From Bdellovibrionota bacterium (lineage in GTDB: Bacteria > Bdellovibrionota_C > UBA2361 > JBGSMV01), in assembly GCA_041739995.1 (NCBI GenBank), contig JBGSMV010000024.1, positions 28,355 to 92,354 on the forward strand: a stretch of 64,000 nt of DNA, given 5' to 3'. The notes beneath the pieces are model-generated. The model saw nothing but the letters and a program-made list of their open reading frames with translations. It made no database searches and was not told the origin of the DNA. Shown in pieces: positions 22,524 to 60,888 of this stretch. Every line of letters begins with the position of its first letter. Positions within the stretch are counted from its first letter, which is position 1. The translations under genes and the position numbers were made by a program.

Positions 22524-22607
22524 CCAAAGCCAATCCTGTGTGCTGGGTCAAAAGTTCCTTTAAGTTTTTTTCTCGCTGAACTCATTGTGTAATTCATTAA
22601 ATATATT

Positions 22608-22741
22608 CACAAAGAGAGCCTCGAGCTCGGCGAGTGTTCTTCATCGAACTCTTAGTGGTCTTTGTGTGCTTAGTGGTGCAAACAAACTCTAGAAATTGGG
22701 CTAAATTTGATTAAACCACAAAAGCCACTAGGCTCACGAAG
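22608..22741. repeat. cluster of 3 x 9-bp periodic repeats in alternating orientation
   Basis: cacaaagag|agcctcgag|ctcggcgag (22608-22634); cttagtggt|ctttgtgtg|cttagtggt (22651-22677); accacaaaa|gccactagg|ctcacgaag (22715-22741). Confidence 0.6.
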
Positions 22742-22768
22742 ATAGAAGCACGGGGTTTCAGAGGTTTC

Positions 22769-23731
22769 CTAGTTCGCCGTGCTCGCTACCCAGCGGCGCA
22801 ACGCCGCTTCTACCGCAGAAGTGACCTCGCCCTTGTTCCATACGAACGCTTGCCCAGTCACCAGCTCATAGGCATCAATGTAGTGCCTCGATATTTCTAC
22901 GCGCTTTTCCGCACTAAATTCAGGGATCTTTCCATCGCCCTTGAACCCTTGAGCAAGCAACCATTGGCGCACGGGCTCCTTATCAAGCATTTCTGGTAAC
23001 TCACCGCGCTCGAAGCGCTCAGCGTAAGAGGAAGCCTTCCAAAAACGAGAAGAATCGAGAGTGTGTATTTCATCGACCAGAAGTAATTCTCCGTCCACAA
23101 TTCCAAACTCATATTTGGTGTCTACAAGAATGAGCCCTCTACGTGCCACCTCTTCTCTTCCAAATGCAAATAACTTAAGTGCAGTCTCCCGCATCTGCTC
23201 CCATAAAGCCGGCGCAACTATTCCACGCGAGAGCACTTCTGCCTCAGAAATTGGTTCGTCGTGTGTGCCTCGTTCAGCCTTGGTCGACGGCGTAACTATC
23301 GGGGTTTGTAGTCGCTCAGACACCCGCATGCCTTTGGGTAATACGACGCCACTGACTGGCTTCCCTTCGACATAGTCGCGCCAGGCGCTGCCCGCCAAGT
23401 ACTCGCGCACCACCACTTCGATTGGTAATACTTGCGCCTCACGCCCGATCAAAACATTCGGATGCGGGGACTCGAGCACATGATTAGGAGCGATCTGCAC
23501 TACCTTCTCAAACCAAAAGCGCGCCAAATCGTTCAGCACCTGCCCCTTAAAGGGAACCGTAGTGACCACTCGATCGAAACAACTTAATCGATCTGTGGTA
23601 ACAAGAACTCTCCGCTTTCCAACCACATAATTATCACGAACCTTTCCTTCGTAGCGCTCCCCGAGGAAGTCAAAGTTAGTGCCTGAAAGCACAAACGGAA
23701 GTTGTGTAAGAATCTCTTGATCTGAAATCAT
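22769..23731 (-). CDS. purC: phosphoribosylaminoimidazolesuccinocarboxamide (SAICAR) synthase
   Basis: YEGKVRD, TDRLSCFD, TPSTKA, LVDTKYEFG, DEIHTLDSSRFW, DKEPVRQW. Confidence 0.97.
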   Translation of the reverse strand: MISDQEILTQLPFVLSGTNFDFLGERYEGKVRDNYVVGKRRVLVTTDRLSCFDRVVTTVPFKGQVLNDLARFWFEKVVQIAPNHVLESPHPNVLIGREAQVLPIEVVVREYLAGSAWRDYVEGKPVSGVVLPKGMRVSERLQTPIVTPSTKAERGTHDEPISEAEVLSRGIVAPALWEQMRETALKLFAFGREEVARRGLILVDTKYEFGIVDGELLLVDEIHTLDSSRFWKASSYAERFERGELPEMLDKEPVRQWLLAQGFKGDGKIPEFSAEKRVEISRHYIDAYELVTGQAFVWNKGEVTSAVEAALRRWVASTAN

Positions 23732-27397: not shown

Positions 27398-28066
27398 ATG
27401 TCGAGCGCAAATTCAAATCGTATTGTCGTTGCGCCGTCGATTTTGGCAGCCGATTTTGGCAATCTTTCCAACGAAATTCAGTCAGTCGTTCAAGCAGGTG
27501 CCGACTGGCTGCATATCGATGTGATGGACGGGAAATTCGTTCCTCCGATCACTTTTGGGACCAATATGGTGTCCCTCGCCAAAAGCATGTGCACTATCCC
27601 GCTCGACGTGCACCTCATGATTGTCGAACCTGAAAATCATATCGAAGCCTTCAAAAAAGCTGGTACCTCACGCCTGACTGTTCATCAGGAGACCTGCGCC
27701 GATCTGCATGGTGTGCTCACTGAGATTCAAGCCCAGTGCATGTTCGCCGGCGTTTCGGTTAAACCAGAAACACCGATTCAATCGATTTTTGATGTGCTTG
27801 AAGTTTGTAACCTTGTCCTCGTGATGACGGTAAATCCCGGATGGGGTGGGCAGCCCTTTATCGAGAGCTCATTGCAGAAAATTTCTAGTCTTCGAGCGGA
27901 GATCTCCCGGCGCAACCTCTCGACCTGGGTAGAAGTGGATGGGGGGATTAATGCAAAAACTTCAGCCGCATGCCGAAAAGCAGGTGCGAATGCTCTGGTA
28001 GCTGGAACCTATGTCTTTGGATCCCCAGATAAGCAGGCGGCGATCCATAGTTTACGTGGAGAATAG
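27398..28066 (+). CDS. rpe: ribulose-phosphate 3-epimerase
   Basis: APSILAAD, HIDVMDG, DVHLM, VMTVNPG, VDGG. Confidence 0.97.
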   Translation: MSSANSNRIVVAPSILAADFGNLSNEIQSVVQAGADWLHIDVMDGKFVPPITFGTNMVSLAKSMCTIPLDVHLMIVEPENHIEAFKKAGTSRLTVHQETCADLHGVLTEIQAQCMFAGVSVKPETPIQSIFDVLEVCNLVLVMTVNPGWGGQPFIESSLQKISSLRAEISRRNLSTWVEVDGGINAKTSAACRKAGANALVAGTYVFGSPDKQAAIHSLRGE

Positions 28067-28264
28067 AAACGCTTGATATCAGGCCACGATTCTCAGTTTT
28101 CAAATCCTTAGTGGCTGCGGGACAACGGTTGAGATGAACAGTTTCGCGCCGCTCCAAAGCCTGGCCAATCAAGCCGGTTATAAGGAGCGAAAGCTGTTCG
28201 ATCCGTTTGTTAGCCAGCCCGCAACAATTCTGTAAATTCCCCGAATATCACCTGGGGGAATATT

Positions 28265-28783
28265 ATGCCTACGAATCGCACATCACTGGAAAAGGAAATC
28301 GCGGAATTAATCTATCTGATTCGAGGAAAGCGAGTAATGCTAGATTCCGACCTTGCTGAGCTCTATGGTGTTGAAACCAAGCAGGTCAATCGGGCGGTAA
28401 AGCGAAACCCAGAACGCTTCCCTGAAGATTTCTACTTTCAATTGTCAGAACAGGAGGTTACAGACTTGAAGTGCCAATTTGGCACTTCAAGTTCTTGGGG
28501 TGGCCCAAGAAGAGCTAGGCCACACGCTTTCACCGAGCAGGGTGTGGCAATGCTTTCAAGTGTTCTTCAGAGTAAAGAGGCCGCTGTAGTAAACGTGCAG
28601 ATCATGCGAACGTTTGTCGCCATGCGAGAAGCAATCTCGGTACACAAGGAACTAACTTTCAAGTTTGAGCAACTTGAACATCGATTGGGGAAACACGACG
28701 ATGAAATTGCAGCGCTGTTTGAAGCCATCAAGCAGCTCATGCTGCCGGTCAGATCGCAAAAGAAGCAACGGATCGGATTCTGA
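28265..28783 (+). CDS. ORF6N domain-containing protein
   Basis: IRGKRVMLDSDLAELYGVET, KRNPERFPEDF, AFTEQGVAMLSSVL, C-terminal RIGF. Confidence 0.92.
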   Translation: MPTNRTSLEKEIAELIYLIRGKRVMLDSDLAELYGVETKQVNRAVKRNPERFPEDFYFQLSEQEVTDLKCQFGTSSSWGGPRRARPHAFTEQGVAMLSSVLQSKEAAVVNVQIMRTFVAMREAISVHKELTFKFEQLEHRLGKHDDEIAALFEAIKQLMLPVRSQKKQRIGF

Positions 28784-28915
28784 CCGCCACTATAGCTTCG
28801 CTGGCTAACGGCAAAGCCTGTGCCGCGGTACTCCGTCGGTACGAGGCGTTTGTTCTCCCTGCATTCTACGCGCCCTCGTTTTGTAAGCAACTTTTGTCTT
28901 AGATTTCCGATTATC

Positions 28916-29366
28916 AATTGTAACGCGGAGTACGCGGTGGACGCGGAGGGGAAATGTTGTACGAAGAACTTACTGGGGAAACTATTGAAGCGGCCATGAA
29001 GGTTCATAGCGCCCTTGGAGCAGGCCTCTTCGAAGAGGTATACAAGGTATGCTTGCGCCATGAACTGACCAAGAGAGGAATTATGGTGCGCTCTGAGGTA
29101 GGAGTGCCGGTAATCTATGACGGCGTAAAACTTGATCTCGGCTACCGTATCGATTTACTCGTCGAAGATAAGGTAATTGTCGAACTAAAGTCTGCTGAGC
29201 GTATAGCTCCTGTTCACAAGGCTCAACTACTGACCTATCTGAAGCTTGCAGGGCTGCAAGTCGGACTGCTACTTAACTTCAACGTGCCACATCTTAAAGA
29301 CGGGATTTTACGAGTCGCTAACACCATTCCCCACTCCGCGTCCACCGCGTACTCCGCGTTATAATT
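28916..29366. mobile_element. candidate GxxExxY element: gene bounded by 33-bp inverted repeats
   Basis: Left arm 28916-28948 AATTGTAACGCGGAGTACGCGGTGGACGCGGAG; right arm 29334-29366 is its reverse complement with one mismatch. Mobility is inferred. Confidence 0.65.
28954..29364 (+). CDS. GxxExxY protein (PD-(D/E)XK-like nuclease fold)
   Basis: VHSALGAGLFEEVY, YRIDLLVEDKVIVELKS, QLLTYLK, GLLLNFN. Confidence 0.95.
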   Translation: MLYEELTGETIEAAMKVHSALGAGLFEEVYKVCLRHELTKRGIMVRSEVGVPVIYDGVKLDLGYRIDLLVEDKVIVELKSAERIAPVHKAQLLTYLKLAGLQVGLLLNFNVPHLKDGILRVANTIPHSASTAYSAL

Positions 29367-29650
29367 CGTTCAATGTGACACAGCAGGGAGAACATATCTA
29401 TTAGCGGGGCAGCTCGCCTCAGCCGTTCTACCGATACCCCGAATATTATACCTAGTCGTCAAACCAAAACCTCTTGCGAACTTGCCAAGATAGCGATGGG
29501 CATTCCATGAGATCAAAGATCTATGGGGGACACAAAACTACCCCTCGCCGTTATCGATTCAAGCTATCGAATGGGATATGCGAAGAAGATAGATCAGTAT
29601 GAGTCTTCTTTTAAAATAGGCTCACACGAAACAAAGGAATGCTTGCGCGC

Positions 29651-29854
29651 CTACCCTTCAACCAACTCAAGCGCATCAGGGCTAAGATACGAGAGGGTCC
29701 CGTTGTCCCAAAGAACATTCACCAGTAGGCCGTTCTCGGGAGATTCAACCTTTGAGGCCATCACCTCATCACGAAGCTCCTTCACCACCCCGACGCAGCC
29801 TTGGCCACCAGCTCGCTTAACTCGATCTGAGACTTTTAATGTACGCTTCGTCAT
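29651..29854 (-). CDS. small hypothetical protein (possible SH3-like barrel)
   Basis: GGAG RBS before ATG 29854; LKVSDRV..GVV..VNVLWDNGT..LELV pattern. Confidence 0.6.
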   Translation of the reverse strand: MTKRTLKVSDRVKRAGGQGCVGVVKELRDEVMASKVESPENGLLVNVLWDNGTLSYLSPDALELVEG

Positions 29855-60388: not shown

Positions 60389-60888
60389 GTTTGTGGAAAC
60401 CGTACGTCGGTCGGACGCCATTCGAGGTTCACCACAAGGAATCAGAGCTTATAAGCGGTGGGAACATTTTCCTATCCTCCGTAGCCGCATTCCTCTCCGC
60501 GGCCTCGGTGTTAAAATTCTTGTCGCATATCCCCCACTTCCCGACATAAGCAAGCAAGTTCACCGCTCAAGGAACTCCACTCGATCAAAAACTAAGAAAA
60601 TTTCGCACGTAATTTGCCTTAAGCCCCGTGCGTAAGCTCCTCATTCTGCAATTGTGATGAATTTTCAGTGCACTAGCTGAAAGGTTTTGCTCAAGAGCGC
60701 CGTGGCTCCTGCCGACTTTCTAACATTGAGTCGGGTAGCTTAGGTCGTGTTCTTGGACGGGGGTCTTCAGGAGCACATTGAGACTTCTGTGCGTTGCAAC
60801 GAGGTGCAGGCACTGCGGTCCTCAAGTCGGTCTGCATTCCTAAGCAGGTAATTTCGTTCGAAGCCTATTCCGCCTTTTTTGCGGGGAG

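Follow-up and report, generated by a model that had tools for sequence, protein, structure and literature searches.

Within the window, by which we mean the whole 64,000-nt stretch of Bdellovibrionota DNA analysed here, we read the segment at approximately 28850-29394 as the protein-encoding member of a family of long palindromes that are dispersed in the genome, with a gene of the GxxExxY family lying exactly in the loop. The arrangement seems to be selfish DNA of an undescribed kind. The explanation that we favor, at a probability that we put slightly below even, draws on the analogy with REPIN/RAYT and posits a repeat-plus-nuclease system in which a PD-(D/E)XK enzyme would act, at the DNA level, on hairpins formed by word arrays.

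The gene (28954-29364, plus strand), which encodes a protein of 136 aa and is intact, is enclosed by two 36-nt arms, at 28916-28951 and 29331-29366 (both assigned to the plus strand), the right arm being the reverse complement of the left one with 94% complementarity and 379 nt lying between the two. Both arms are recognized by the nhmmer arm model, with E values of 1e-7 and 2e-7 for the left and the right arm, respectively. The earlier note on this DNA described an inverted match of 32 out of 33 nt with a perfect 28-nt core; the core is indeed perfect, at 28921-28948, and the match extends over the full arms. Aligned locally with the reverse complement of the sequence downstream, the upstream flank of the cassette scored 68; 200 shuffles scored 15.5 on average and at most 24 (z 24.8). 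From its outer edge inward, the left arm consists of an A/T-rich end, three words of the form CRCNRAG (28922-28948) and GGGG. The words are carried by three 9-nt units (28922-28930, 28931-28939 and 28940-28948), as originally described, and their 7-nt cores in each arm are CGCGGAG, CGCGGTG and CGCGGAG. Gene and arms interlock: the ribosome-binding site GGAGG (28945-28949) lies inside the left arm, 4 nt 5' of the ATG (28954), the nine C-terminal residues of the protein, SASTAYSAL, together with the TAA stop codon (29362-29364), come from the right arm, and the stem pairing extends inward past the ATG. All three of these features had been recognized from the outset, and the looser inward pairing is now borne out by both the flank alignment and the RNA fold.

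The conserved sequence does not end with the arms. An additional, perfect 12-nt inverted pair (28851-28862 and 29383-29394) encloses them and also forms in the RNA fold; its left partner overlaps the conserved block TTGTTCTC, and its right partner terminates a right outer module (29367-29394) that, in flank comparisons, resembles the right flanks of other family members. On the 5' side of the left arm, blocks at 28850-28858, 28884-28896 (TAAGCAACTTTTG) and 28908-28913 (CGATTA) are conserved across five cassettes from three genomes (the window cassette, L009, L020, L024 and L016) despite the differing arm words, and outer modules similar to the plus-strand segment 28884-28913 flank gene-less copies as well. 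More generally, the outer flanks are partly palindromic and similar among the members of the repeat family. Judging by these comparisons, the conserved palindromic unit spans approximately 28850-29394 and is thus larger than the self-contained unit of about 450 bp that was initially proposed. The upstream blocks may serve as a promoter or leader, or may belong to the outer portion of the element; in this genome, they were not seen as a dispersed repeat when up to two mismatches were allowed (TTGTTCTCCCTGC, 125 matches compared with 59 for the reversed control; GTAAGCAACTTTTG, 22 compared with 26). In L009 and L020, visual inspection did not bear out a sigma-54 site in the upstream block, the GC at -12 being absent. 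The outer edge of each arm carries AATT, for which a 4-bp target duplication had been considered as one possibility; other copies of the repeat have the A/T-rich ends TTTTAAC and GTTAAAA, and the AATT continues such an end, so it is best taken as part of the repeat. Because these ends are themselves palindromic, a TTAA or TA duplication would be indistinguishable from the repeat.

The encoded protein matches PF13366 (PDDEXK_3; E 2.7e-41, 141 bits with a cut-off of 22) and TIGR04256 (GxxExxY; E 1.9e-42, 144.3 bits with a cut-off of 35). The signature residues G24-x-x-E27-x-x-Y30 and the catalytic D67 and E77-x-K79 are all present; among 88 sequences, G24, E27, Y30, D67 and K79 do not vary, and E77 is conserved in at least 90%. 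The AF2 model (pLDDT 91.7) adopts a restriction-endonuclease-like fold, in agreement with the PD-(D/E)XK-like fold expected for this family in the earlier note. The best structural matches are all PD-(D/E)XK proteins, if modest ones (Foldseek top E 3.8e-3, to the Cas4 protein SSO0001; top Z 7.9), and sequence searches of the PDB, with either the single protein or a profile, yielded no match. Besides PDDEXK_3, the single Pfam match was to Cas4, below the threshold, and no known transposase family was matched. The homodimer prediction for the GxxExxY protein yielded no verdict (score 0.00). We infer that this protein binds or cuts the arms.

The arms are not confined to the cassette. A search of this genome (3.8 Mb in 81 contigs) with the nhmmer profile of the arm detects, at E<0.01, 36 arms at 24 intergenic loci. 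Apart from the cassette and one pseudogene, these comprise 22 gene-less loci: eight complete hairpins, each about 75-90 nt long, and others that are solo arms or arm-spacer-arm arrangements. One such hairpin, L008, folds with -26.7 kcal/mol (z -5.05), whereas lone arms fold no better than shuffled sequences (z -0.62 and -0.76); because a lone arm does not fold, the stem must form between two arms. The pseudogene, a second GxxExxY copy located on another contig, shows 67% identity and has 4 stop codons; it retains degraded versions of both arms, that is, the arms have decayed along with the gene. With the caveat that the ORF calls are crude, none of the 24 family loci falls within a credible gene, and the 22 loci that could be classified divide evenly between convergent and tandem neighbors, 11 in each case; a divergent gene pair flanks none of the 22 (p 0.0025). 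The hairpins of the family are thus sited at the 3' ends of genes. Elsewhere in the window, at 60478-60517, a right arm of this family, including CTCTCCGCGGCCTCGGTGTTAAAA, occurs on its own, with a weak nhmmer match (E 0.62).

A separate count in this genome gives 81 triple-word arrays compared with 21 for the reversed control, and other word families, namely CACGAAG/CACAAAG, CACTAAG/CACCAAG and CACAGAG, are found here without a matching gene. The window itself harbors, at 22650-22773, a different word-array element in which inverted arrays (of the CTTAGTGG type and then of the CCACAAAG/CACGAAG type) face outward from a common center, ending in TTCAGAGGTTTCCTAG; the two arrays pair imperfectly, with a systematic difference at the variable position of the word. 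Arrays of this type number about 35 genome-wide, five of them occurring as back-to-back pairs on other contigs. A further repeat, at 22550-22645, adjoins this element and has copies beside word arrays on contigs C7, C27, C33 and C81, and upstream on C77.

Is the enclosure of the gene peculiar to this locus? Among the homologs of the GxxExxY gene found in genome records, which by record title span at least a dozen phylum-level groups, 55 of the 79 testable ones are bracketed by an inverted repeat at z>=6, and 60 of the 79 at z>=4. In metagenomes, 46 of 67 testable loci are bracketed at z>=6 (13 of the 80 loci had too little flanking sequence and were left out), and 39 of these 46 have two or more words. 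Displaced control windows from the same loci reach z 6 in just 2 of 143 cases, that is, 1.4% compared with 69-70% for the GxxExxY genes (Fisher p 2e-30). Among relatives from the same order, near-full-length loci number 13, of which 11 are bracketed, with z of at least 6.9; of the remaining two, one has no such repeat and the other has the left arm alone. In the best-matching genome record, which is also from Bdellovibrionota, the arms are identical to those of a genome of the same genus, G001. A bracketing repeat is not detectable around 24 of the 79 genome-record homologs and 21 of the 67 metagenome homologs. The gene and its arms thus form a recurrent unit, as had been conjectured from the single locus. 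Conceivably, an ordinary gene could have acquired two copies of a common repeat inserted beside it by coincidence, a notion to which the abundance of the family in this genome lends some appeal; we nevertheless consider this to be very improbable, given that homologs in unrelated phyla are bracketed with different words while the control windows almost never are, and that the pseudogene copy, too, has both arms.

The words vary from locus to locus (CACAGAG, CACGGAG, CACGAAG, CGCAGAG, CGCAAAG, CGCCAAG, CACAGAT and others), the two arms of any one locus being in agreement. The distance between consecutive words over the 55 loci is 8 nt in 18 cases, 9 nt in 17, 10 nt in 9, 11 nt in 8, 12 nt in 2 and 13 nt in 1, so that 52 of the 55 fall between 8 and 11 nt. 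The constant feature, therefore, is the 7-nt word rather than the 9-mer: the expectation that homologs would have inverted repeats in their flanks holds for most of them, in the form of inverted word arrays, whereas the 9-bp period that was part of this expectation is found, exactly, in 17 of the 55. When word type is mapped onto a tree of 48 proteins, which is poorly resolved and omits three loci because of internal stops and four that have at most one word, 26 changes are required, compared with a mean of 30.5 upon shuffling; a count this low was reached in 4 of 500 shuffles. The protein phylogeny is thus tracked only weakly by word type, so that the anticipated co-variation of repeat and protein can be seen as slight tracking but not as strong coupling. 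It follows that, if the protein reads the words, what is read would be the constant positions or the fold.

Across genomes, the gene and the arrays go together. Among 31 genomes of the order, triple-word arrays are present in 13 and PF13366 in 10; nine genomes have both, one has the gene only (as a 33-aa piece), four have arrays only and 17 have neither (Fisher p 3e-4, with the proviso that Fisher tests of this kind overstate significance because related genomes are not independent samples). The number of arrays per genome ranges from 2 to 806, with 0-3 for the reversed-pattern control, and many of the PF13366 matches in these relatives are fragments or contain stop codons. Array number differs very strongly within a single genus: G001 has, in its 4.7 Mb, 806 triple-word arrays and 7 PF13366 matches, and the present genome, in the same survey, has 34 arrays and 2 matches.

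Under the REPIN/RAYT-like interpretation, the small PD-(D/E)XK nuclease would act on the DNA of the paired or folded arms, be it a hairpin, a cruciform or a single strand, and this action would copy, maintain or mobilize its own cassette as well as the hairpins without a gene, which are far more numerous. In a stronger version, which we regard as possible but rather doubtful, GxxExxY would be the only enzyme of a new class of DNA, mobile or self-copying, that is represented in many bacterial phyla, with a nuclease of about 125 aa recognizing CRCNRAG hairpins or cruciforms and spreading the cassette along with hundreds of gene-less hairpins per genome, unlike elements that depend on DDE, HUH, serine or tyrosine recombinases. 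The evidence includes observations that run contrary to a model of one nuclease for one repeat, namely, the gene-less word families, the four relatives with arrays only and the weak tracking of the protein tree by the words. These same observations would fit a parasite of a parasite, an alternative that we hold to be unlikely. In such a case, the hairpins would spread by some other means, and GxxExxY would be a selfish gene of the homing type; it would cleave hairpins that lack the gene, at the loop or close to it, and repair that uses the arms as homology would then copy the gene into the site. The position of the gene exactly in the loop, with the stem reaching the ATG and the last codons, is what such a gene would be expected to show; the arms of the cassette are typical of the resident family; the near lack of coupling between word type and the protein tree is as expected if the gene hops between hairpin families; and there are several word families, as well as four genomes, in which arrays exist without the gene. 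However, no pair of occupied and empty sites that are otherwise identical was found, the arms offer merely some 36-65 nt of homology per side, and the co-occurrence of gene and arrays is equally well explained by the REPIN/RAYT-like interpretation.

That interpretation places the relationship between enzyme and repeat at the level of DNA. The arms could instead function in RNA, as a long double-stranded stem around the reading frame that keeps the ribosome-binding site inaccessible until processing takes place (RNase III being one candidate, by analogy with the intervening sequences of 23S rRNA), in which case the gene-less hairpins would be 3'-end stabilizers or insulators and the role of the nuclease would be unrelated. 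The arms pair in both the minimum-energy and the centroid RNA folds (z -6.15), with the GGAGG buried, and the cassette gene is co-oriented with its upstream neighbor in 36 of 46 cases (p 1.6e-4) and, within tandem contexts, in 20 cases against 6; a scan of 28200-29700 detected no sigma-70-like promoter. These are some hints that the cassette is expressed by read-through. Given the co-orientation, the lack of a promoter-like site in the scanned region and the buried ribosome-binding site, an RNA-level layer is possible, and the siting of the hairpins at the 3' ends of genes would accord with it. The mismatches in the arms speak differently. The count over 55 arm pairs gives 1792 Watson-Crick positions and 27 gaps; 50 mismatches would be G:U in the sense RNA, compared with 54 of the A:C type, which would be G:U in the antisense RNA only (p 0.77), and a further 84 mismatches are of other kinds. 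There is thus no G:U bias and hence no sign of pairing being kept on one RNA strand, which favors either a DNA-level relationship or a recent origin of each copy. Furthermore, the same scan of 28200-29700 revealed no intrinsic terminator or T-run, L001, L002 and L008 have no Rfam match at E<=1, selection would leave any inserted DNA at the 3' ends of genes as well, and a device of this kind would fail to explain why one particular gene family is enclosed. On balance, we consider an exclusively RNA-level function to be improbable.

The context of the cassette is itself fluid. The cassette lies downstream of rpe and is flanked by an ORF6N gene and a small reading frame; the interval 28066-29650, from rpe to this small minus-strand ORF, holds the ORF6N gene (PF10543, E 3.2e-36) and the cassette. 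In G001, the same interval contains two unrelated ORFs, of 473 and 217 aa, with word arrays between them, and a further pair of arrays lies between rpe and fmt. The distance from rpe to clpX is similar in G001, and the gene content is wholly different, with neither ORF6N nor GxxExxY. The region downstream of rpe is a variable spot; given this variability, no clean empty site is to be had there, and the empty site with a single AATT that the earlier note envisaged downstream of rpe was not found, the G001 interval being occupied by other genes. The same applies to the gene-less hairpin L008, the flanking genes of which are 6.6 kb apart in G001 and therefore not comparable. The wholesale difference between the two rpe-clpX intervals, and the arm-spacer-arm junctions that are seen between unrelated genes in both this genome and G001, would be accounted for if the word arrays were sites for a host recombinase, in the manner of integron attC sites, with GxxExxY as a frequent cargo. 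We give this scheme little credence because the bracketing of 69-70% of the GxxExxY genes, compared with 1.4% of the control windows, and the co-occurrence of the arrays with GxxExxY are too specific for random cargo.

In contigs of 4 public runs from one study, the element is found in its place with 100% identity, in pieces, no one of which spans the whole stretch, and these contigs contain no excision joints; six public runs are listed with the element, none of them RNA. The metagenome collection contains no near-identical copy in another context, and the closest relative there is 62% identical, so there is no sign of a recent spread of the window copy. Altogether, the comparison with G001, the contigs of the public runs and the flanks of the family yielded neither an empty site nor an insertion polymorphism, and neither excision joints nor target duplications were seen; that copies of this repeat move at all we infer.

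Should the nuclease indeed act on the hairpins, a very common family of 'hypothetical' proteins, with at least 596 relatives detected in our genome scan, would gain a function. If this is the case, families of intergenic repeats, represented in one relative by as many as 806 word arrays, would gain an origin, and a second, independent partnership of repeat and enzyme, built on another enzyme fold, would stand beside REPIN/RAYT. There are practical implications as well: gene calls acquire false N-terminal and C-terminal extensions owing to the arms (in the present gene, the repeat encodes the last 9 residues), and the hairpins may break assemblies.

How does this arrangement compare with known systems? 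No description of the GxxExxY-repeat pairing was found in Rfam or in the literature searched, outside subscription journals and supplements. Among PD-(D/E)XK enzymes of mobile DNA are TnsA of Tn7, the Rpn/YhgA-like proteins and the homing endonuclease I-Ssp6803I. They share the fold class with GxxExxY and provide a precedent for this fold serving selfish DNA; unlike them, GxxExxY has no sequence match to solved structures, and its structural matches are generic. TnsA works with a DDE partner, whereas the GxxExxY cassette includes no second gene. In one published tabulation, PDDEXK_2 is entered as 'putative transposase' and PDDEXK_3 as 'unknown' (PMC3424549). The intervening sequences of 23S rRNA that contain an S23p (PF05635) reading frame (PMC4990558) resemble the cassette in that a small, selfish-looking reading frame is placed inside a long stem; the differences are that the cassette is located between protein-coding genes rather than in rRNA and that the protein family is another one, PF05635 having no match in this genome, G001 or G004, and a single sub-threshold match in G019. 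Miniature elements (MITEs) accompanied by an autonomous IS are similar in having terminal inverted repeats around a coding version, many short non-coding derivatives and an intergenic location. They differ in that the protein of the cassette belongs to no known transposase family and in that, here, nearly the whole of the short element is one hairpin, with palindromic ends that would hide any target duplication.

The closest parallel in layout is with REPIN/RAYT, where, as published descriptions have it, the RAYT gene is flanked by inverted copies of the extragenic repeat of the genome and is accompanied by many gene-less hairpin doublets (PMC3116915, PMC3337134); in the REPIN/RAYT literature since 2018, the titles and abstracts that were found do not mention the GxxExxY family. 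The enzymes are distinct, a PD-(D/E)XK nuclease of about 125 aa in the present case and an HUH Y1 transposase of the IS200/IS605-like type in the case of RAYT. Each REP is a short imperfect palindrome, whereas the lone arm here is not palindromic (z -0.6 and -0.8) and consists of an array of a 7-nt word. RAYTs are described, furthermore, as single-copy genes that are mostly inherited vertically (bioRxiv 10.1101/2022.05.22.493013), unlike the GxxExxY gene, which is sporadic, multi-copy and often decayed, and for which no transposition intermediate was seen. These differences notwithstanding, both systems comprise one gene that lies between inverted copies of an extragenic repeat dispersed in the same genome, along with gene-less inverted doublets, which number tens to hundreds and can fold into hairpins, and singlets and more complex arrangements, all with extragenic siting. 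The analogy with RAYT/REP drawn at the outset is therefore apt as far as layout is concerned, because the arms recur without the gene, at 22 loci in this genome, and the arrays track the gene across genomes.
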